From contig DAOVKB010000002.1 in assembly GCA_030631995.1 (NCBI GenBank), forward strand, positions 1 through 47,029: a stretch of DNA of 47,029 bases, in the 5' to 3' direction. Below the pieces are notes generated by a model. That model made no database searches, was not told the origin of the DNA, and was given only the letters and a program-made list of their open reading frames with translations. Positions 343 through 47,029 of this stretch are shown piece after piece. Within the stretch, counting starts at the first letter, position 1. Every line of letters starts with the position of its first letter. Position numbers and translations under genes: made by a program. This DNA is from an archaeon. GTDB taxonomy: Archaea > Asgardarchaeota > Heimdallarchaeia > Heimdallarchaeales > Heimdallarchaeaceae.

Positions 343-2373
343 ATGTATAATATGAAAAAGAAAGATTTTGTTAATATTATAATTCTAGGGATGTTATTAT
401 TCACAACAATAAAGACATCTTACACAACAAATGGATTAATTTTAACTAATGATAATTCCGAAACTACACCAGATGCTATTACAATACAAACGTTTACTGG
501 AACAATAAATGTAACTACAATAGTAGGACCAGATTATGCTTATGATGTAATTCACAAAGCGTTAAAACATGCTCAAACATCAATTCATCTTGAAGTATAT
601 ACACTATCTAGTGAGCCTTTAGTTAATGAATTAATTAGAGCTGATAGAAGAGGAGTGGAAGTAATAGTTCAGCTTTCCGATGATAGAGTAAACTCTTATG
701 AAGATGCTTATACAGAAGAAGCTGCATATAGACTAAAGAAACAAGGAATTGACGTTTACTGGACTAATGGAACTGAATTTGTTTTCACACATGCAAAATT
801 CTGGATAATCGATGGAATAGAAACATTCGTTTACTCTGGCAATTGGGCACCTTCAAGTATTCCTCAATATTCAGGCGCTAGAACAAATAGAGAGATGGGT
901 TTTCTGTTCAATCATGCCGGAATTGCAGCATATTTTGAAAATGTGTTTATTGCTGATGGATTAATCTCTACTCCATATGCACTTGGTTCAGGTGGCGGTA
1001 GTTTACAAGGTAATGAAACAACCGGAACTTATACGCCCGTTTCTTCAGTAGATACATTTAATGAATATACAGAAGTTACACCTATTTTTGCACCAGACAA
1101 TAGTTATGAACTACTCTCTGGGATCATTGATGCTGCTACAACTTCTATAGATTTAGAATTACAATACATGAAATTTGATTGTGATTTGCTAGATGATGTA
1201 TTAGATGCTGCACTACGAGGTGTTTCTATAAGAGTTCTAATTCCAGAACCAGGAGTCGCAAATGAAAATGTTACTGAAACTCTCATCAGTCACGGCATAC
1301 AGGTTAAGTTCTTCAAAGGTTTAGGACATAATCACAACAAGTTTGTTTTAGTTGATGGTGAGACCGTACAAATTTCAAGCATTAATTGGTCAAATAACTC
1401 TGTTGACTATAATAGAGAATCAGGAGCTATTGTAAAGAACTCTAATATCGCAGCATACTACGAAGATGTTTTTGACGAGGATTGGGTTGTTAGTGAAACA
1501 CCTACTGGTTTTGCAAAACCTGTAGATCTTGTATCACCAAAAGGAGGAGGAATCGCAGATGGCAATTTTAACTTCCAAGCATCATTTTCTGTTAATACAT
1601 ATACATCAGGAGAACTACTCATAGATTCAGTTTCAGTTCATACATGGGCCAGTCCTGTTGGAATTGTTGGTCACATAGTAGATACTACTGCTTATGCAGA
1701 TGGAATTCATACAGTGAAGGTTATAGGAACCCCCACAGCAGGATCACCTATAGAAATCGAGAAAAATATCAACATAGTGAATACAGCTGATTGGAATCTT
1801 CTAATTACGGAAGTAAGATACGATGCCAATACTGAACCAGATGGTGAATTCGTTGAGATTTACAATTATTTTAGTTTCGCACTAGCCATTGAAGGATGGA
1901 TACTGACGGATAATGAGGGGAAATATACTATACCAGATGGAGCTCAGATAAATGCGAATGAAGTATTGGTATTTGCACAAAGCAGTTCAACTTATGTAAG
2001 TGAGATGAGTGCATTAGGAATTACTGTATCAGCTGCTGATTATGGATTAGGCGATATTGCTCTAGCAAATACAGGCGATGAAATAATACTCAAAGATCCA
2101 GATGAGGGTATAAAAGATGCGGTTGCATGGGGATCAGGATCTGTATCCGGAGTTATCAGTTGGTCTGGAAGTGCAACAGGAGAAGACGAGACATTACAGC
2201 GAAGTCCACCTAATGAAGATTCAGATGATTGTGATGCAGATTTTGTAATAGATACGCCTACACCTGGAATAGTAGAACCAGATGGTCCAGGATTTACTAC
2301 TTTGCTAGTTTTACCAATAATAACAATTGCTGCATTAGTTGTAGTATTCTTAAGAAGAAAAATACAGAGATAA
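343..2373 (+). CDS. secreted/anchored phospholipase D-family protein with lamin-tail domain and PGF-CTERM-like anchor
   Basis: N-terminal hydrophobic segment (FVNIIILGMLLFTTIKT). Two HxKx4D motifs (HAKFWIID nt 790-813; HNKFVLVD nt 1333-1356). LTD-like segment LLITEVRYDANTEPDGEFVEIYN...GWILTDNEG (~1798-2200). C-terminus is PGF (nt 2287-2295) + TTLLVLPIITIAALVVVFL + RRKIQR. Confidence 0.8.
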   Translation: MYNMKKKDFVNIIILGMLLFTTIKTSYTTNGLILTNDNSETTPDAITIQTFTGTINVTTIVGPDYAYDVIHKALKHAQTSIHLEVYTLSSEPLVNELIRADRRGVEVIVQLSDDRVNSYEDAYTEEAAYRLKKQGIDVYWTNGTEFVFTHAKFWIIDGIETFVYSGNWAPSSIPQYSGARTNREMGFLFNHAGIAAYFENVFIADGLISTPYALGSGGGSLQGNETTGTYTPVSSVDTFNEYTEVTPIFAPDNSYELLSGIIDAATTSIDLELQYMKFDCDLLDDVLDAALRGVSIRVLIPEPGVANENVTETLISHGIQVKFFKGLGHNHNKFVLVDGETVQISSINWSNNSVDYNRESGAIVKNSNIAAYYEDVFDEDWVVSETPTGFAKPVDLVSPKGGGIADGNFNFQASFSVNTYTSGELLIDSVSVHTWASPVGIVGHIVDTTAYADGIHTVKVIGTPTAGSPIEIEKNINIVNTADWNLLITEVRYDANTEPDGEFVEIYNYFSFALAIEGWILTDNEGKYTIPDGAQINANEVLVFAQSSSTYVSEMSALGITVSAADYGLGDIALANTGDEIILKDPDEGIKDAVAWGSGSVSGVISWSGSATGEDETLQRSPPNEDSDDCDADFVIDTPTPGIVEPDGPGFTTLLVLPIITIAALVVVFLRRKIQR

Positions 2374-15998: not shown

Positions 15999-18074
15999 AT
16001 GATTGAACTGAGTTACGAGCGAGAAGATGTTTATAACATCAATTTTAAAAAACTGGAACTTCCTGAGCCCAAATTATCAAAAACTAAACGAGCTCTGGTC
16101 CTAACGCATTTATTTCTCTATCGTAATTTAAATCTAGCAGATTTTTCTGAGAAACATGAGATCAATTTAGAAGCAATTAAAGAGTACATCCAAGTACTGA
16201 TACAGTCGCTAACTATCAGAGGTTATTACAGAAAAGATAGATTTGTTATAGCATCAATCTATAAGTTTCCAAATATAAATCCAGGTCGTTTAACCTCTAT
16301 TCGAAAAGCTATCCTAGGTTTATTAGCATATTCAAAAAAAATAAGCCTAAAAGAGATAACTGGGATAGTTAATATAAAGCTCGATATTCTGTTAGATCAT
16401 CTGAAGTATTTCATTAGCAGAGGATTGTTAATAGGACAAATTAAAAACAAAGAACTAATTTCAAATTGGATATGGAAACCTCCCGAAAAAGTTACAATTT
16501 CTGCAGAAGATACTTTTATTGTGGGAGTTTGTATGATGCTAAGAGATGCTGAATTGGCAAACGTAGCAAAGCACACAGGTTTTTCCAGAGAGCAGGTATT
16601 TACAAAATTGTCTTTTCTAATGCTTTATAGAAAACTAGAAGCTCAGTTTGAGATTCGATCAAAATTAGTTGGAGCTTCAAGTGTTTTCATTAACGTGAAA
16701 AAATATCATATTTCACCTAGAATCCTCCCACTAGCTGCCTTACAAGGAATTGAGAAAGAAATCGCTGGATACACAATACTAAGAAAAACTGTTTCAATTA
16801 AAGAATTAGTAAAGTTTGTAGGCAAGGAACCCATAGAAATAATGAAAATTTTAGCTCTTCTTACTGCAAGAGGAACTTTTCAAGTAGTATTTACAGAAAA
16901 AAATTATATTAATCCAATTGTTATTCCTGAATTAAAGCCAAAACGGACCATTGAGGAAATGGCTACTCTTTCATTCTTTAATTATGAAGCTTTATTTGGA
17001 TTGTTATCTACTCAAGACAGAATCCCTCTTAAAAAACTAGGAGCTTTCATGAATAGAACAACTGGTGAGGTTTTAGAAGGTGTTATAACACTTCTTTTGG
17101 AAGGATTTATTTCTGGGACAATAAAAGGTACTACTCTTTATGTTGAAAGTATCCGTAGATATAGTAGAACACAAGAAGGAACTCTAGATAGATGGGAAAA
17201 GATCCTACTTGGAATGGTTATTGCTAAAAAACAGATTAATGTCAGAGATATAGCTTTAGCACTAGGGGTAGACAAAATCTATGCTAAAGAAAGGTTGTAT
17301 GGTTTTTATGGTAAAGGTCTGATAAAAGGCACAATTGTGGGAAATCGATTAGAACCAGATGAGATTCCTATCTTTCCTCCTCTCACACAATTAGAAGATC
17401 TTCCCATTCATTATCAAGAAATATTCGGATTTATTACTGCGAATAAGAAAGTATCATTAACCAGCATTCAGAAAAACTGGAGCAAATCCCTTAATGCGTC
17501 TCGAAATATAGTCTACGAATTAACTGGTTCAGGTTTAGTTAATTTGGAAATGAGAGGTAGTTCTCTAAATGTATTATCTTATCAAAAATTTCTACCTAAT
17601 AGAGAATTGGAGGAGTTAGGAGATAATTATGTCCGGATAGTTAATGAGATAGAAAAATCAAGAAGGAAAAAAATCAGACTCAATATTATTGCTGCAGATC
17701 TCTCTTTAATGGAACAAGATATTTTTAGAATCATTTGTCAATTACTTGCTCATGGATATTACAATGGAATTCTTACTAGCACATACTTTGAGAGGAAAGG
17801 ACAACTCACCTTACCATCATTAAAGATGCACTGTTTGAACTGTGGGCATATAATCAAGTCAGCATATGACCCATGTAACAACTGTGAAGAAATTCCTTCA
17901 AAATGTTCAGTCTGTCAAGGTTTAATTAAAAGAGGGGATAGCATCCTAGAATGTCCAAATTGCTCCAATGTTGCTCATGACGATCATATGGAGCAGTGGA
18001 TGAAAATAAAGAATGAATGTCCCATGTGTAAAACAAAGATATCAAAAAGAAATCTTAAATCGTATTCAGTATAA
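15999..18074 (+). CDS. tandem winged-helix (PCI-like) repeat protein with C-terminal zinc ribbon and RING-H2-like finger
   Basis: About 8 repeats of the WH pattern (e.g. ISLKEITGIVNIKLDILLDHLKYFISRGLLIGQIKNKEL). CLNC-x10-CNNC at nt 17832-17885. C-x2-C-x12-C-x2-C-x4-H-x2-H-x3-W-x6-CPMC at nt 17904-18029. Confidence 0.6.
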   Translation: MIELSYEREDVYNINFKKLELPEPKLSKTKRALVLTHLFLYRNLNLADFSEKHEINLEAIKEYIQVLIQSLTIRGYYRKDRFVIASIYKFPNINPGRLTSIRKAILGLLAYSKKISLKEITGIVNIKLDILLDHLKYFISRGLLIGQIKNKELISNWIWKPPEKVTISAEDTFIVGVCMMLRDAELANVAKHTGFSREQVFTKLSFLMLYRKLEAQFEIRSKLVGASSVFINVKKYHISPRILPLAALQGIEKEIAGYTILRKTVSIKELVKFVGKEPIEIMKILALLTARGTFQVVFTEKNYINPIVIPELKPKRTIEEMATLSFFNYEALFGLLSTQDRIPLKKLGAFMNRTTGEVLEGVITLLLEGFISGTIKGTTLYVESIRRYSRTQEGTLDRWEKILLGMVIAKKQINVRDIALALGVDKIYAKERLYGFYGKGLIKGTIVGNRLEPDEIPIFPPLTQLEDLPIHYQEIFGFITANKKVSLTSIQKNWSKSLNASRNIVYELTGSGLVNLEMRGSSLNVLSYQKFLPNRELEELGDNYVRIVNEIEKSRRKKIRLNIIAADLSLMEQDIFRIICQLLAHGYYNGILTSTYFERKGQLTLPSLKMHCLNCGHIIKSAYDPCNNCEEIPSKCSVCQGLIKRGDSILECPNCSNVAHDDHMEQWMKIKNECPMCKTKISKRNLKSYSV

Positions 18075-37202: not shown

Positions 37203-37508
37203 TTAAAATCCAAATCTAGCGAATATAATAGTAAATATTATTATCCCTAAGATTACTACAAGCAGAAAACTTGTAATTAGCATATTTCTGATTTTAGCTT
37301 TTCTTAGACAACTTGGACAATAAGTCATTTCCTGTTGTGTCTGTTTCTGAGGAGAGAACATAGCTGAAATAGCATTAGTATGCCAGTATTTCTTAGCGCA
37401 ATCATGACATATGTTATTTCCGCAATTCTCGCATTCCTTGAAAGATTCCTTTGTTGTGTGAATATAGCAGTATTTAGTCATATTTACCACAAATGGTGCC
37501 TCAGCCAA
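37203..37508 (-). CDS. tail-anchored B-box-like zinc-finger protein
   Basis: C-x2-H-x8-C-x2-C-x4-C-x2-C-x5-H (CYIHTTKESFKECENCGNNICHDCAKKYWH), plus CPSC and a C-terminal TM LITSFLLVVILGIIIFTIIFA. Confidence 0.45.
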   Translation of the reverse strand: MAEAPFVVNMTKYCYIHTTKESFKECENCGNNICHDCAKKYWHTNAISAMFSPQKQTQQEMTYCPSCLRKAKIRNMLITSFLLVVILGIIIFTIIFARFGF

Positions 37509-37586: not shown

Positions 37587-38480
37587 CTATTCATATGCAA
37601 TTAAGGAAGTGATTCTTTCCACAACCAACTGTCTTATTCTTCCAATAGGTTTCTTTCCTCTTTCAGATAGCACTAGATTGAGCTTTCGTATTTTAGCTTC
37701 GTTTACTAGATGATCATGTATTTTCCTAATTTGCTCAAAATGGTTTAGCAATTCTTCTTTTTCTTTTGTATATTGAGCACTTAGATTTTCTTTATGCAAT
37801 GATTCATCTGGAGTTGCAATTGTAATATAGAGCACATTAGGTTTTTTCAGTATAGTATCTTCATAAAAGGCTGGTAAAAGATGCTCACCCTCAACTACAA
37901 TTGATACAGATTCAGTTTCAGCTCTTGATAAGACAGCTTCAACGCCTATATTAACAAATTTTGAATGATTTTCGAAACCTAATATAACTTCCTCGAATCT
38001 ACTACTATATATTGGTCTTAAAGTCTGGAAAGCTTTGTAGGAAGTAGAATGAAGTTCAGGCATTATATCAGCGGAAAGGACTTTTTGAAGAATATTTCGA
38101 ACAACATCAGTTCCTATTACATGTTGAATACCTAAATCTCCTGCTATCTGCCTCGAGATAGTACTTTTTCCAACCCCTATTGCACCAGAGATGAAGATCC
38201 ACAATGGAATTTCTGAATCTCGCCAGTTTTCTATTTTCTTATATTGTCCAGCAAGTCTTTTTGTGTAATTCTGATTCAAGAGATTACTTACAATTTCATC
38301 TAATTGTTTTTTAGTAATTTCGTTCTTTTTTAATTTTAATAATTCATTATGAACCTGTATTGAAAATTCGTAACCATCAGAGAGACTAAAACCTACTAAT
38401 TCCAATTTCTTTGCTAATAAACCTCTAGAAAAAAGCTGATCAGGTTTTCCTTTGATTTGTATTTGAGGTTCAGTACTCAT
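37587..38480 (-). CDS. 2-phosphoglycerate kinase-like protein (ATP-cone + P-loop kinase), paralogue A
   Basis: N-terminal ATP-cone-like segment (FSRGLLAKKLELVGFSLSDGYEFSIQVHNEL). P-loop GAIGVGKSTISRQIAGDLGIQHVIGTDVVRNIL, typical of COG2074. Confidence 0.65.
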   Translation of the reverse strand: MSTEPQIQIKGKPDQLFSRGLLAKKLELVGFSLSDGYEFSIQVHNELLKLKKNEITKKQLDEIVSNLLNQNYTKRLAGQYKKIENWRDSEIPLWIFISGAIGVGKSTISRQIAGDLGIQHVIGTDVVRNILQKVLSADIMPELHSTSYKAFQTLRPIYSSRFEEVILGFENHSKFVNIGVEAVLSRAETESVSIVVEGEHLLPAFYEDTILKKPNVLYITIATPDESLHKENLSAQYTKEKEELLNHFEQIRKIHDHLVNEAKIRKLNLVLSERGKKPIGRIRQLVVERITSLIAYE

Positions 38481-38623: not shown

Positions 38624-39577
38624 ATGAGTTATACTATCTTATTTTTAATGAGCAGCAATGTTTCCACTGGTTTTTTGAAGATTCGGAGAGGAAAAGATAA
38701 AATTGAATATTTCTCTAAAGGAATACTTTCTTCTTCATTATATTCAATTGGAATGAATGCTAATGAAGCAATGGAAATTGCTAATCACGTAGAACAAACT
38801 ATGGGAGAATTAGAGGGACCTGTTTCACGAAAAAAGCTCATTAAAACAATTACTGATGAAATCGAGAAGATTGACAAACGATTAGCAGAGAGATACAAAA
38901 TCCATGAAGGAGAGAGAAATTATAAACCAATCATAATACTACTTGCAGGAGTTCCAGGGATAGGTAAAAGCACAATATCGTCTCGTCTTTCTCAAAGATT
39001 GGAAATATCAAGTATTATTGGAACAGATATGATCAGAGAGATTCTTCGCCAGACAATTTCTCCAAAACTAGTTCCTGAATTGCATTGTAGTAGCTATGAT
39101 GCTCATAAATATCTCAAATCAAAATTAAATCCGATTTTGAGGCAGTCAATAGTAGGTTACGAAGAACAGTGTAGACACATAATAGTAGGTGTAGAGGCAG
39201 CTATTCAATCAGCCCTATACTCAAGAGAAAGTACAATAATAGAGGGGGTGCATTTAGCACCAAATATTCTTCAAACCTCAATTCTTGAAGAACAACACAT
39301 TTTGATATTCCTTCTTTATCTAGAAGATGAAGAAGAACATTCAATAAGAATTCAAGCTAGAGGTTCATCAATAGAAAAACGAAGTGCGGATAGATATATT
39401 TCGGCATTTTCTGAGATTAGAAACATACAAACATACCTTGTGGAGGAAGCTACAAAATTAGGTTTACATATGATAGAAACTTCCAGTAGCAGTAAAGCAA
39501 TAAGTAAAATGATGGATCTAGTCTGGGATAGAATCATCGAACTCGAAAAATCGGAAAAAGGGAAAGAGAAAAACTAG
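38624..39577 (+). CDS. 2-phosphoglycerate kinase-like protein, paralogue B
   Basis: Same architecture as paralogue A: FSKGILSSSLYSIGMNANEAMEIANHV, then GVPGIGKSTISSRLSQRLEISSIIGTDMIREILRQ, then EGVHLAP. Confidence 0.65.
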   Translation: MSYTILFLMSSNVSTGFLKIRRGKDKIEYFSKGILSSSLYSIGMNANEAMEIANHVEQTMGELEGPVSRKKLIKTITDEIEKIDKRLAERYKIHEGERNYKPIIILLAGVPGIGKSTISSRLSQRLEISSIIGTDMIREILRQTISPKLVPELHCSSYDAHKYLKSKLNPILRQSIVGYEEQCRHIIVGVEAAIQSALYSRESTIIEGVHLAPNILQTSILEEQHILIFLLYLEDEEEHSIRIQARGSSIEKRSADRYISAFSEIRNIQTYLVEEATKLGLHMIETSSSSKAISKMMDLVWDRIIELEKSEKGKEKN

Positions 39578-43518: not shown

Positions 43519-44244
43519 TTAAACTGAAAAGACCTTAGATAATAGATTAGGAATTTCAGATATACTAGATATGATCAAATCTGGATTTGTACTTTCTATA
43601 TATGATTGACTTATTTCAGCAAATTCACTTAGTACCCCTATAGTTTTTGTTCCAGCGTTTTTACCTGCTTGTATATCACTCATGAAATCACCAACTACTA
43701 CAGAATTTTCATTTTGAATGTTAAGTTTTTCAAGGGCAATGAGAATTTGTTCAGGGGATGGTTTTGTATGACGAACATCATTTCTTGTAACTATGCAATC
43801 AAACGTGTCATATATTGAAGGATATTCTTTTTTTACTCTTCTGAGAGTATGTTTTGAAGCAGAAGTAATCAATGCTAAATTAATGTCCATCTCTCTTAAT
43901 TGTTGCAAAGTCTCAAATGTTCCTTCAAATGGAACAATTGGCCATTTCTCTTTTGAAAGGATTGAAAAGAACAATCTCACTATTACTCGAAATGTTTGAA
44001 ATTTTGAGAGACCTCCAATTTTGCATATCTCCAAAATACCCTTAAACATGATATTTGCACTTCTTCCACCATGGATAAGTAGAAGAGAGGGAGCATGTTG
44101 AGCAATTTTGCTTTTATCAAAATTAGGATTGATTTTCTCAATAACTTGCTCTACAGGGTCAATCCATCTAGCTTTAAGACTGATAAGTACACCATCCATA
44201 TCGAATAGAATACAATAATTCTTCCAACTAGACGTATCTTCCAT
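43519..44244 (-). CDS. HAD-superfamily hydrolase (phosphatase, PGP/beta-PGM-like subfamily IA)
   Basis: Motif I LFDMDGVLI, motif II LITSASK, motif III K (HTKPSP), motif IV VGDFMSDIQAGKNAG. Confidence 0.8.
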   Translation of the reverse strand: MEDTSSWKNYCILFDMDGVLISLKARWIDPVEQVIEKINPNFDKSKIAQHAPSLLLIHGGRSANIMFKGILEICKIGGLSKFQTFRVIVRLFFSILSKEKWPIVPFEGTFETLQQLREMDINLALITSASKHTLRRVKKEYPSIYDTFDCIVTRNDVRHTKPSPEQILIALEKLNIQNENSVVVGDFMSDIQAGKNAGTKTIGVLSEFAEISQSYIESTNPDLIISSISEIPNLLSKVFSV

Positions 44245-44286: not shown

Positions 44287-47029
44287 TTACCTTAATCTTT
44301 TACGCAGTAGAATATTAGCATCAACCATTTCAAATATTTTTGAAAGCACTTCTTCCATTGAGTGTTTGCTGAAAAATTCAAGTGCTACACTTATTGATAC
44401 TTCATTATAATCTTTAATGAATTTATATAGTCTTTGACTGAAAGTGTCTAATTTTAGCACATCTTTTTCTTTTACTGCATTTACAGAGAGAGGATGTAAT
44501 GTCCAAACGAATAGACTTTCAGATAATGTATCAATTATTGATCTTTCATTTGCTAGAAATTCATCTGTTTTGCCATCCCAAGTTGTGCTCACAAGTGCGT
44601 GGAATTTCTTCTCAAACCAATCAACAAAGCTTGCTATGCCTGTTTCTACATCTACTGAGATGTCACCAGTGCTAAACAAATAGGTTGTTATACAATCTGT
44701 TCCTGCACTAGAGACGCAGAATTGTCCATAATCGATTTTTCTAACTGCTCCAGCTTCTCCCCCACTTATCTCACCACCCATACCTGAAACAGCTTGTAGG
44801 AAACCAGAAACTAACGAAGAATCTACTGATATTTCTCCACCGAGATCCCATTCATATATAGGTAATCCGGTTTCATTGTGAACAACGATTACTTTTCTCA
44901 TAGAGATTACACTGGTAAGAACCTTTGAAATTTTATCCAGATATCTTCGCTTCTTAGCTTTCTTTCTTTGTTTTCTTGGTCTAATTACTGCGAAATGTAT
45001 TGTTAAGTATAATAACACCGCAGCAATTGCTGCTAAAACTGCAGCCATGTATGGAGTATATGCTTGGAAGAAGAACAACAGTATCGCCATAAAACTAGCT
45101 GAAGCAGTAACAACTTCTTCCTCAACTGATGTTTTGGACAGAACAATAGCATCGTTTGATGCTATATATTCAGCAGAATATCTGATTCCTACAACTCTCC
45201 ATGGAATAAGAATGTCGTCAGTAAATGCAATAATATCATCACCTACTAACTCCAGATCCACTAAAATCCAGTATGTCATTTCAGTTCCGTTTGCAAAAAT
45301 GAATGTATAAGTAATATTAACTGAACCTAGTGCAAGATCAGGAAGATATCTGACACTCATGCTAGATAAGGCAGACACATCAGCATAAGAAGCATTACCT
45401 ACTGTAATTTGGAATTGGAAAGTTTCTAATTGCCTGACTTCTCCGACAATCTCAACTTCCAAATCAAAGTCTGAAGCTGGATTAAATACCAAAGTTATAG
45501 TTATGATCTGTGACACGTAACCATATTTAGATAGGGTTATCACTATAACCAGTGTTTGTCCTACAACTGCTGCATCATTAGGATCAAAGTAAATAACATA
45601 ATATAAACCAAGAGTAGTGACTCCATAATCATCAAAATAATCATCCAAACTCAAAGTTCCATTAATAAAGGAAAATTGTACATCTGCCGAGTTTATTGTA
45701 GAGTCATTCAAATCATCTGTATAACTAATATAGATGTCAATCTCCGTTGCATCAGCATCATTTCTAATAGTTACTTCCGTTTCTCCATCATCAGTTTCAC
45801 CTACCGTCAGTCTTTCTTCTATAGTAATGTAGATCGTAATCAGTTGAGGAAGATATCCAAACTCTATAATCGTTATATTAAGCTGATACGTTCCAGTGGT
45901 ATTGATATAGTTGAGGTAAATGAATATGAACTCACCAGTGGGTGTTAAAATGATGTCAGTTACATTGAATATTGTTGTGAAATTACCTTCATAAATTACT
46001 ATGTCAGGAGAACTAATATTAAATTGAGAATTTATATCCCAGTAACGGATTTCAACAGTAACGTTTTGATCATAATAAATAGTATTATTTGGAGTGGTTA
46101 AGAGTTCTGCATCAGTATCTACAAAGACCAATTCGATAAGGATTATATCAGTTGAATTTAAGTAACCCGTTTCACCAAATTCTATAGTGATCTGAAGCCA
46201 TTCCATGTTATAATCATTATTCTCGATTGTTATATTGTACAAACCGTCTTTCCAGTGAATGACACTAATTACTATATAATCAGTTGAATTAGTTATGATA
46301 CTGTAAATTTCATCACCTGCTATGGTTATATTTTCATTATTATCTATGTCTGTGAAATGTACAGTTATGACAAAAGGATAGCCGATTGATATACTACTAG
46401 GCGCACCAACTATTTGCAAATCTGTGGTAATGGGATCTACAGTCAAAACTCTCAAATTAAAATTCACAATAAACTCATAATTGTCTTTTGAGATATCAAG
46501 AAACACTGTGAAGGATGAAAGGGAAGCATTGTTATTCTGAATGTTGATATAATATATGTTCCCTATTGCATATGAATAATAGATGATGTTTTCTGCACTA
46601 AATAAAACACTAATTGTAGCCCCTAAGATATCTGTAGAATGATTAGTATCTACGAATTGGAAAGAAATAGTTGCATTATGATATGAGTATATTGATAAAT
46701 CTCCACCTACGTTCTGAATTTCCGTTTTCGGTGCAGTAATATCTAAAATAAAACTATCAGAAGCATATTCTTTCGTATAATTAGCTCTGTAATCATTTAT
46801 CTGAATCGCTACAAAAACATCATAGCTTCCTACGGCTAGATTATTTGTTGATGTACTTAGATCTAATTTCCAAGTTTCTTCTACAGCTCCTTGATATGTA
46901 AATGTGTAATCTATTCCGGTAGACAAATTATAAGCTACCGATGCATTGCTTATTGTAACAATCATGTCATTTAGAGGTGTTCCTGTGTCCAAGTTAACTG
47001 TTGCAGATTCATCATAAAGATACATGAAG
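44287..47029 (-). CDS. large single-pass surface protein (N-terminus beyond window) with cytoplasmic longin/roadblock-like and winged-helix-like tail
   Basis: The ORF stays open to the right window edge. About 660 aa of repetitive beta-rich modules carry many N-x-S/T sequons. TM AAVLAAIAAVLLYLTIHFAVI + RPRKQRKKAKKRR (~44940-45085). The tail is VIVVHNETGLPIYEWDLGGEISVDSSLVSGFLQAVSGMGGEI... followed by a WH-like end. Confidence 0.6.
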   Translation of the reverse strand, partial: FMYLYDESATVNLDTGTPLNDMIVTISNASVAYNLSTGIDYTFTYQGAVEETWKLDLSTSTNNLAVGSYDVFVAIQINDYRANYTKEYASDSFILDITAPKTEIQNVGGDLSIYSYHNATISFQFVDTNHSTDILGATISVLFSAENIIYYSYAIGNIYYINIQNNNASLSSFTVFLDISKDNYEFIVNFNLRVLTVDPITTDLQIVGAPSSISIGYPFVITVHFTDIDNNENITIAGDEIYSIITNSTDYIVISVIHWKDGLYNITIENNDYNMEWLQITIEFGETGYLNSTDIILIELVFVDTDAELLTTPNNTIYYDQNVTVEIRYWDINSQFNISSPDIVIYEGNFTTIFNVTDIILTPTGEFIFIYLNYINTTGTYQLNITIIEFGYLPQLITIYITIEERLTVGETDDGETEVTIRNDADATEIDIYISYTDDLNDSTINSADVQFSFINGTLSLDDYFDDYGVTTLGLYYVIYFDPNDAAVVGQTLVIVITLSKYGYVSQIITITLVFNPASDFDLEVEIVGEVRQLETFQFQITVGNASYADVSALSSMSVRYLPDLALGSVNITYTFIFANGTEMTYWILVDLELVGDDIIAFTDDILIPWRVVGIRYSAEYIASNDAIVLSKTSVEEEVVTASASFMAILLFFFQAYTPYMAAVLAAIAAVLLYLTIHFAVIRPRKQRKKAKKRRYLDKISKVLTSVISMRKVIVVHNETGLPIYEWDLGGEISVDSSLVSGFLQAVSGMGGEISGGEAGAVRKIDYGQFCVSSAGTDCITTYLFSTGDISVDVETGIASFVDWFEKKFHALVSTTWDGKTDEFLANERSIIDTLSESLFVWTLHPLSVNAVKEKDVLKLDTFSQRLYKFIKDYNEVSISVALEFFSKHSMEEVLSKIFEMVDANILLRKRLR

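Follow-up and report, generated by a model that had tools for sequence, protein, structure and literature searches.

A predicted surface glycoprotein of a Heimdallarchaeon with a longin and winged-helix-like cytoplasmic tail

Introduction

Can one polypeptide place a large, variable domain outside an archaeal cell and a longin domain on the inner face of its membrane? This question is raised by a long open reading frame (ORF) on the minus strand (44287..47028) at the end of a 47,029-nucleotide stretch of Heimdallarchaeaceae DNA (GenBank assembly GCA_030631995.1, contig DAOVKB010000002.1, positions 1 to 47,029), hereafter the window. A first-pass annotation made from the sequence alone described the frame as a giant receptor-like surface protein with a cytoplasmic longin/roadblock-like domain. 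Asgard archaea encode many longin/roadblock proteins and small GTPases. Their genomes are reported to contain 130 Roadblock/LC7-superfamily asCOGs and longin-GTPase fusions and to show extensive domain shuffling (10.1101/2020.10.19.343400; PMC10933270), and longin and roadblock domains have been described as GTPase platforms (PMC3747258). Here, we report that the product is, by its sequence features, a type-I membrane glycoprotein of a Heimdallarchaeon, that its tail is modeled as a longin domain followed by a winged-helix-like (WH-like) bundle, and that the architecture recurs in other Asgard archaea.

The frame is the C-terminal part of a larger, syntenic gene

The interval is a single long open frame that ends at a stop codon on the inner side of the window and stays open to the window's last base. 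The first ATG given by the ORF lister is at 47025, and the codon 5' of it (47028-47026) is TTC, not a stop. The window therefore holds the C-terminal 913 residues alone of a larger gene, and features of the full-length protein, whose N-terminus lies beyond the window, were taken from orthologues. The peptide strings quoted in the first-pass annotation were all found in the minus-strand translation; plus-strand ORFs of 79-90 aa in the same interval are shadow frames and found no support. The window has a G+C content of 31-36%, and the frame has archaeal housekeeping genes as its neighbors (those for archaeal-type PheRS alpha and beta, GcvH, Kae1, TFIIB, SepF, and AlaRS), together with one for a RING-finger protein. 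Every named homologue of the frame is from Asgard archaea, the nearest from Heimdallarchaeota/Heimdallarchaeaceae.

A scan of one genome per species returned 17 syntenic loci, all in Heimdallarchaeota-type metagenome-assembled genomes (MAGs), one of which carries a Thorarchaeota label. Gene order is kept, running from a metallophosphoesterase through the giant gene, an optional HAD hydrolase, GcvH, and PheRS alpha and beta onward for more than 10 kb. The gene is therefore a single-copy, vertically inherited orthologue and not part of an island. Orthologues measure 1,155-1,867 aa, which bears out the word giant, and the gene is complete in four loci, at 1,665-1,670 aa in three (L002, L012, and L015) and 1,867 aa in the fourth (L009). 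These four begin with MKLPxxxRKxRK, a hydrophobic core of ~17 residues, and then a small-residue site, which is a signal peptide as far as sequence can tell. The full product of the window gene is estimated at roughly 1,700 residues, and comparison with the orthologues would put about 750-950 N-terminal residues, signal peptide included, beyond the window. Many loci break off inside the gene, suggesting that its repeats interrupt assemblies.

A single membrane helix separates a sequon-rich ectodomain from a cytoplasmic tail

The visible protein has one transmembrane helix with a basic stop-transfer cluster directly after it, as first proposed (Table 1). From the basic stretch to the C-terminus, residues 683-913 form a 231-aa tail. 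The 659-aa ectodomain fragment before the helix was said to be dense in N-x-S/T sequons, and it carries 22, relative to 8.7 +/- 2.6 in 2000 composition-preserving shuffles, of which 0/2000 reached 22. The tail has 1. Because the orthologues have signal peptides, the membrane helix is single, the basic cluster lies on its C-terminal side, and the sequons are distributed asymmetrically, the tail is predicted to be cytoplasmic and the large part to be outside. The protein thus has the features of a predicted type-I (N-out, C-in) membrane glycoprotein, in line with the topology given in the first-pass annotation.

The same polarity is seen across the family of proteins related to the tail, for which we compiled statistics on 148 listed representatives. 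A transmembrane helix lies at most 75 residues upstream of the domain in at least 88 of them (88/148). Lysine plus arginine (K+R) in the 15 residues past the helix averages 5.4, relative to 0.6 before it, and 86 of the 88 have the greater count after the helix. In 64/88, 300 aa or more precede the helix (median 929 aa); sequons in these 64 number 3.7 per 100 aa N-terminal to the helix vs 0.54 per 100 aa in the tails. One transmembrane-linked representative is annotated Lokiarchaeota.

A second membrane helix at residues 638-657, which would invert the topology, was considered and rejected. In the 17 orthologues, the maximum 19-residue hydropathy of this stretch is 0.26-1.77 and falls below 1.4 in 15/17 (1.67-1.73 in the remaining two), with K/E present. 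Most orthologues show the motif P-x-F-x-x-L-L-x-Y-L-F-x-E at this place, which is better described as an amphipathic outer juxtamembrane motif.

The tail is modeled as a longin domain with a winged-helix-like bundle

An initial index-limited search yielded 12 close orthologues of the tail, and an AlphaFold2 (AF2) run with these alone gave a predicted local distance difference test (pLDDT) score of 44; this model was discarded for a run on 35 sequences. A hidden Markov model (HMM) search through 1.84 billion cluster representatives defined a tail family of 287 representatives at E <= 1e-3. The alignment used from here on, A3, contains the tail and 34 relatives (35 sequences) with 20-71% identity to the tail. 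With A3, AF2 reached a mean pLDDT of 92.2 and a predicted TM-score (pTM) of 0.85, with the order beta-beta-alpha-beta-beta-beta-alpha-alpha followed by a winged-helix-like bundle. The short helix that precedes the first strand, at tail residues 2-15, is seen only in transmembrane-linked members.

When the tail model was compared with the Protein Data Bank (PDB) by Foldseek, each of the 50 matches listed was a longin or roadblock protein. Among them are MON1A/CCZ1 (9l0d, E 2.8e-4), COPI zeta, TRAPP Bet5/Trs23-type (3cue_C), AP sigma, Prometheoarchaeum Roadblock2/3, Fuzzy-Inturned, LAMTOR, MglB, and dynein LC7. The model therefore supports membership of the tail in the longin/roadblock fold superfamily, and the annotation's guess at a Mon1/Ccz1-like domain was a good one. 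Neither of the two outcomes that the annotation named as refuting it, a tail unlike longin/roadblock folds and a tail placed outside the cell, was observed. Its compound label, longin/roadblock-like, can be narrowed to the longin side. Soluble family members begin straight at beta-1 (MNFEFIVSNNSGLPIY, MISKVLIIRANGILCY, and MGLKQIWILEESGTCLF), so the topology is that of a longin rather than a Roadblock domain.

Sequence comparison also points to a longin by way of relatives. Neither the tail nor the whole fragment gave anything meaningful against Pfam and NCBIfam, and the tail (A2 and A3) had no significant match in the PDB by sequence or by profile. All 35 members of A3 searched against Pfam at E <= 1 revealed no recurrent family, no Robl_LC7, and no PF19036. 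The A3 profile does pick up Asgard proteins that bear Pfam PF19036. P0179 (123 aa, 28.5 bits) and P0227 (218 aa, 26.5 bits) both pass the Fuz_longin_1 (PF19036) cut-off of 26.1, and P0179 is just under the threshold of Intu_longin_1 (Intu/CCZ1). Aligned by hhalign, A3 matches P0179 with 98.5% probability (E 2.8e-15) and P0227 with 97.1% over 188 columns that cover longin, linker, and C-terminal bundle. The bundle is homologous along its full length to the C-terminal part of P0227, and the tail is thus a membrane-attached copy of a free-standing Asgard longin-WH protein. Taken together, model and sequence comparison indicate that the tail is a juxtamembrane helix, a longin probably of the Fuz/Mon1/HPS1-LD1 type, and a winged-helix-like bundle.

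The C-terminal bundle deserves separate consideration, as a winged helix that binds DNA would make the protein a membrane-tethered transcription regulator, acting at the membrane in the manner of ToxR or CadC or after proteolytic release, with the longin in a regulatory role. In the AF2 model, the order of helices and strands is compatible with a winged helix whose wing is cut off by the C-terminus. Soluble homologues have sub-threshold helix-turn-helix (HTH) matches (P0211 to MarR_2, E 0.003, and HTH_27, 0.0048; P0227 to HTH_27, 0.044), the tail has a weak PDB profile match to the Lrp-type HTH 2ia0 (E = 0.37), and other soluble family members carry arrays of winged HTH (wHTH) domains. DNA binding is disfavored, however, by the acidic and hydrophobic character of the putative recognition helix SMEEVLSKIFEMVDANI and by the nearly neutral charge of the WH segment (12 K+R vs 10 D+E). 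Every HTH match is under its Pfam cut-off, the truncated wing is a further point against, and no protease site or partner protease is evident. Protein-protein contacts, moreover, are the role of WH domains of the PCI or ESCRT-II type. We consider a tethered regulator very improbable. The first-pass annotation had likened the last ~60 aa to WH repeats of the protein encoded at 15999..18074. No such similarity is detectable (hhalign probability 0.4%), although the segment is modeled as a winged-helix-like bundle.

Table 1 Coordinates of the gene, its predicted features, and its downstream neighbor in the window
Feature	Position	Strand	Residues	Remarks
Ectodomain fragment	45052..47028	-	1-659 of visible 913
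Module 1, degenerate copy	46438..46728	-	101-197	Ends KDNYEFIVNFNLRVL; module-a HMM independent E-value 6.9e-6; in register with other modules
Module 2	46114..46431	-	200-305	Ends EFGETGYLNSTDIILIEL; module HMMs and alignment
Module 3	45805..46089	-	314-408	Ends IIEFGYLPQLITIYITI; module HMMs and alignment
Module 4	45463..45792	-	413-522	Ends LSKYGYVSQIITITLVF; module HMMs and alignment
Outer juxtamembrane motif	45052..45099	-		SFMAILLFFFQAYTPY; orthologue form P-x-F-x-x-LL-x-YLF-x-E-[YF]; amphipathic
Single transmembrane helix	44983..45051	-	660-682	YMAAVLAAIAAVLLYLTIHFAVI; 19-residue Kyte-Doolittle mean up to 2.52; kept in all orthologues
Basic stop-transfer cluster	44944..44982	-	683-695	RPRKQRKKAKKRR; directly after transmembrane helix
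Juxtamembrane cytoplasmic helix	44902..44943	-	Tail 2-15	YLDKISKVLTSVIS; linker from transmembrane helix to longin; AF2
Longin domain	44497..44901	-	Tail 16-150	AF2, Foldseek, hhalign to P0179
Longin elements			b1 16-23, b2 29-34, a1 43-60, b3 70-73, b4 76-82, b5 86-92, a2 98-120	SGFLQAV in a1
Elements after longin a2			Helices 128-132, 134-144, 147-150	Preceded by conserved W-x-G-x4-F motif; helices together read as a3
C-terminal winged-helix-like bundle	44290..44490	-	Tail 153-219	AF2
Winged-helix-like elements			Strand 153-155, helices 157-165, 168-180, 185-191, 197-209, strand 213-215
Stop codon	44287..44289	-		Then 42-bp gap to downstream HAD hydrolase gene
HAD hydrolase gene, downstream neighbor	43519..44244	-

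The architecture differs from known longin and roadblock systems

The closest counterparts of the tail are soluble Asgard proteins. The longin-WH proteins P0227 (from Heimdallarchaeota) and P0211 and the stand-alone longin P0179 are homologous to it and have the motifs SGFLxA and W-x-G-x4-F in common with it. These proteins are cytosolic, without signal peptide, ectodomain, or transmembrane helix, whereas the window protein has the membrane architecture and stays under every Pfam threshold. Among the fold matches listed, the best are the tri-longin Rab guanine nucleotide exchange factors (GEFs), namely Mon1-Ccz1, Fuzzy-Inturned/CPLANE, and HPS1-HPS4/BLOC-3 (9l0d, 9rs8, 9lol, and 7q3d), and the Pfam models of their first longin are those matched by the relatives of the tail. 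These GEFs, however, have three tandem longins per subunit and are soluble heterodimers recruited peripherally, while the window protein is modeled with one longin plus WH and is membrane-integral behind a giant ectodomain; it is thus not a tri-longin protein. MglB/Roadblock-LC7, Ragulator (LAMTOR), and the Asgard Roadblock structures 9jue and 9jq8 belong to the same alpha-beta-alpha sandwich superfamily as the tail. MglB/Roadblock-LC7 and Ragulator are dimeric GTPase platforms, and Ragulator is also held at a membrane. Roadblock topology opens with a helix, however, where the soluble relatives of the tail open with beta-1 and none of the 35 aligned members matches Robl_LC7. The anchor of Ragulator is lipidated LAMTOR1, in contrast to a transmembrane glycoprotein.

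Longin SNAREs and phytolongins (Sec22, Ykt6, and VAMP7) resemble the window protein in having a cytosolic longin and a membrane helix in one polypeptide. Their order is the reverse, with an N-terminal longin and a C-terminal tail anchor, they have scarcely any luminal part, and all except phytolongins have a SNARE motif. The window protein runs from ectodomain to membrane helix to longin and has no Synaptobrevin or Longin Pfam match, and it does not classify as a longin SNARE. In a further explanation, the protein is cargo or adaptor that sorts itself, its longin tail recruiting coat-, ESCRT-, or fusion-type machinery that takes it into protrusions or vesicles, in the way of sigma-adaptin, zeta-COP, and SNARE longins, and not regulating a GTPase. 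The best fold matches include AP sigma and COPI zeta (target-normalized TM-scores of up to 0.64); soluble P0211 and P0227 show weak Clat_adaptor_s and Sybindin matches; and fusions of Asgard longin domains with ESCRT-I (Vps28-C) and adaptin-appendage domains are reported (PMC10936438). Yet the relatives pass only the Fuz/Mon1/HPS1 longin Pfam model, Intu/CCZ1 being just missed by P0179, and no SNARE or adaptin large-subunit context appeared in the Pfam scan. Intracellular vesicle traffic in Asgard archaea is, to our knowledge, unproven, which also counts against such an adaptor. No internal membranes were seen in cultured Asgard strains (PMC10933270). Self-sorting therefore strikes us as decidedly unlikely.

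The tail family is widespread in Asgard archaea

Named members of the family come from Heimdall-, Thor-, Hermod-, Hod-, Jord-, and Prometh-/Lokiarchaeota, the sole exception being a partial protein credited to a bacterial MAG, and by sequence the architecture is widespread in Asgard archaea. In soluble members, the domain is C-terminal and follows wHTH arrays (HVO_0163 HTH, ArsR, and TrmB), PCI, TPR or LRR repeats, or zinc ribbons. An Asgard family of ~291-318 aa (P0187, P0195, P0215, and P0178) has the longin N-terminal and a P-loop domain as its second half. It represents here the longin/roadblock-GTPase fusions reported for MK-D1 and other Asgard genomes, and its longin is of the same sequence family as the tail. 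P0195 aligns with the tail profile at 97.5% hhalign probability; its G1 motif reads GENGVGKTS, and it matches Arl5 weakly across 133 residues (E 0.04); the P-loop half of the family has weak Roc, Ras, and Arl5 matches. This fusion indicates that the longin family works with GTPase-like domains. The fusion proteins are soluble and two-domain, unlike the window protein, which has the WH in place of the P-loop domain and the membrane helix and ectodomain in addition. Short proteins with a membrane helix and longin but no ectodomain (P0061, P0147, and P0152) also occur, suggesting that the membrane-fixed longin is the functional core.

A divergent modular ectodomain is joined to a conserved tail

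The ectodomain fragment is acidic and lacks Cys; K+R make up 2.5% of it, and I, T, V, Y, N, and D are abundant. I, T, V, and Y account for 38% of it and hydrophobic residues alternate, a composition and pattern that suggest a beta-rich structure. The first-pass annotation had noted repeats of ~100 aa with a recurrent GY...Q ending, and four modules of this size do tile the ectodomain in register. HMMs made from the orthologues of one module match other modules with domain E-values of 7e-6 to 6e-3 (in a small search space), and eight modules align with a common strand-like pattern that ends in K-x-G-[YF]-x-x-Q-h-h-I-x-h. Intervals of 103 and 112 residues separate the three GY endings. The repeats escape a BLASTP comparison of the ectodomain with itself and are visible only with the module HMMs derived from orthologues; they are therefore old and diverged. 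The L009 orthologue has the module-4 type three times in tandem. The ectodomain has no Pfam, NCBIfam, or PDB sequence match, and searches of the PDB by sequence and profile with the module alignment A5 and the ectodomain gave nothing significant. Pfam searches of full-length orthologues and distant transmembrane-type members gave only sub-threshold CarboxypepD_reg (Ig-like) matches, in two Lokiarchaeota-type members.

Tail and ectodomain evolve at very different rates. The tail is 69-96% identical across orthologues, and for the same pairs of orthologues, identity is 69-91% in the tail vs 30-42% in the ectodomain. In the closest relative (L001:1-4059 vs window 44290-47028), identity is 89-95% for ten flanking proteins and 91% for the tail, while the ectodomain has ~30-45% identity in 50-residue windows and is ~380 aa, or about four modules, longer. 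As judged from these comparisons, the ectodomain evolves quickly and varies in its number of modules, and strong constraint acts on the tail. An outer part of this kind is typical of surface molecules that face changing partners such as cells, viruses, or substrates.

These properties also suit a structural protein of the envelope or glycocalyx, that is, an S-layer substitute or adhesin, whose longin-WH tail would only anchor it, oligomerize it, or attach it to a cytoskeletal element or scaffold, with no small GTPase involved. The gene is single-copy, syntenic, and set amid housekeeping genes in 17/17 genomes, with no GTPase gene in the neighborhood, and the ectodomain is huge, repetitive, sequon-rich, and acidic. 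Longin/roadblock folds also serve as pure dimerization or scaffold modules, e.g., dynein LC7, which is among the fold matches listed. However, a mere anchor would not need a 231-aa tail that is kept 69-96% identical while the ectodomain drifts to ~35%. Both the fusion of the longin family to GTPase-like domains elsewhere and the ectodomain-less members described above speak against a purely structural role. We regard a structural coat as unlikely on balance, though not implausible.

A platform for GTPase-controlled machinery is the favored reading

The reading we favor, with a probability of roughly 0.55, is by analogy that of a surface protein whose membrane-fixed longin-WH tail would act as a docking or regulatory platform coupled to GTPase-controlled machinery. 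Docking of a GTPase is inferred from the platform role of longin/roadblock domains, the fusion of this longin family to a GTPase-like domain, and the extreme conservation of the tail. The signal peptide would direct the giant, sequon-rich, modular ectodomain to the cell surface, and the membrane helix and basic stop-transfer cluster would hold the C-terminal 231 residues in the cytoplasm, where the longin-WH tail could form a docking or regulatory platform on the inner face of the membrane. Like other longin/roadblock domains, the tail is probably a homo- or heterodimer, and its likely partner would be a small Ras-superfamily GTPase, a partner longin/roadblock protein, or both. Events at the ectodomain, such as contact with a partner cell, matrix, virus, or particle, or clustering, may then set the site at which GTPase-controlled membrane or cytoskeleton machinery assembles. 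Equivalently, the GTPase-controlled machinery may position or sort the surface protein.

Several results weigh against a GTPase platform. No GTPase or longin/roadblock gene is a conserved neighbor of the gene, whose flanks are housekeeping genes. The tail sequence matches no Pfam longin or Roadblock model, and the Foldseek matches are modest (E 2.8e-4 to 6e-3, target-normalized TM-scores 0.4-0.68). The assignment of tail residues 153-219 as winged-helix-like comes from the model and weak HMM matches. Direct GTPase binding, moreover, is not a property of every longin; those of SNAREs, AP sigma, and COPI zeta lack it.

A more specific proposal goes beyond the favored platform and seems to us doubtful, with the odds well against it. 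It holds that the family might be an undescribed archaeal receptor class, in which ligand- or contact-driven dimerization of a hypervariable ectodomain would assemble a longin dimer that recruits or activates, in the manner of a GEF or GTPase-activating protein (GAP), a Rab/Arf/Rag-type GTPase at the plasma membrane, and which may be a forerunner of the longin GEFs of the Mon1-Ccz1 type. If so, it would constitute a one-polypeptide, outside-in route to small-GTPase signaling in the lineage ancestral to eukaryotes.

The longin fold, by which eukaryotes dock small GTPases, is already known to be abundant in Asgard archaea; what is new here is the combination of signal peptide, giant variable ectodomain predicted to be glycosylated, membrane helix, and longin-WH, its breadth, and the conservation pattern. 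We know of no eukaryotic protein of this architecture, and literature searches, which did not extend to the supplementary asCOG tables, found no description of a type-I surface glycoprotein with a cytoplasmic longin tail. If the tail binds a GTPase, it would directly link the outside of a prokaryotic cell to GTPase regulation of the eukaryotic type. The family offers a principle of membrane localization without lipid modification and thus a possible anchor point for Asgard GTPase systems. Tested soluble Asgard proteins stayed off membranes when expressed in human HeLa cells (PMC10933270). The conserved tail could serve as bait for finding cognate GTPases, and the rapid diversification of the ectodomain suggests interaction with partners, viruses, or the environment.

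Variants and neighbors of the gene

Some loci depart from the common form. The L003 orthologue (L003:4190-5275) is ended at 362 aa by an upstream stop and is either a pseudogene or an assembly error, and the L013 orthologue (L013:374-3838), a variant of 1,155 aa, has an N-terminal hydrophobic segment of its own. The length of the gene is polymorphic. L018:196-954 encodes a 252-aa short form (P0008) that consists of MKTF, the membrane helix, and the complete tail, and occupies the syntenic place upstream of GcvH; an unrelated ORF with a 4-bp overlap stands in for the ectodomain. As the contig has a coverage of only 2.4x, the short form may be a true variant that lacks the ectodomain or else a chimera created in assembly. 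In P0012 (353 aa, from a 1.4-kb metagenome contig), an unrelated N-terminus of 165 residues is fused in frame to the tail from ITVDSSLVSGFLQ on, and this is probably an assembly chimera.

The gene upstream encodes a 509-517-aa protein with two calcineurin-like metallophosphoesterase domains (L012:4041-5591, L015:4030-5580, and L002:2359-3885). In the loci that reach there, it immediately precedes the giant gene in the same orientation, ~55-80 bp away, and the two may be co-transcribed. A divergent pair of paralogous P-loop kinase-like genes (AAA_18/AAA_33; window 37587-38480, minus strand, and 38624-39577, plus strand) adjoins PheRS beta in all orthologous loci.

Other genes in the window

The first-pass annotation had suggested a link between the tail and three Roadblock paralogues ~12 kb away, and this did not hold up. 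The tail profile does not match them, and their Roadblock identity was not confirmed by Pfam. No other part of the window encodes a tail paralogue that the A3 HMM detects, this ORF being its only match among all six-frame ORFs. The three genes (28464-29564, plus; 30299-30880, minus; and 31078-32058, plus) encode paralogues with a shared C-terminal domain of ~125 aa at 27-30% identity and a Roadblock-like pattern. They have no Pfam match at E <= 1, and their best PDB profile match, to Roadblock-type cvnB5 (3leq), is weak (E 0.31). The 366-aa and 326-aa members have a second, N-terminal domain of similar look. A functional tie between these proteins and the tail would be pure speculation.

Four further genes have unusual products. 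The 691-aa protein encoded at 15999-18074 (plus) carries at its C-terminus a RING finger (zf-RING_2, E 8e-6), which is a ubiquitin-ligase signature of eukaryotic type, and a 101-aa ORF at 37203-37508 (minus) has weak RING, FYVE, and B-box-like zinc finger matches (E ~1.6e-3, under cut-offs). A 402-aa ORF at 27211-28419 (plus), with no Pfam match, is extremely acidic and of low complexity (E, P, V, and I), and its last ~40 residues are strongly basic. At 343-2373 (plus), a 676-aa protein combines two PLD-like domains, a lamin-tail domain (LTD, E 4.9e-14), and a TrmB-like segment, which is an unusual combination.

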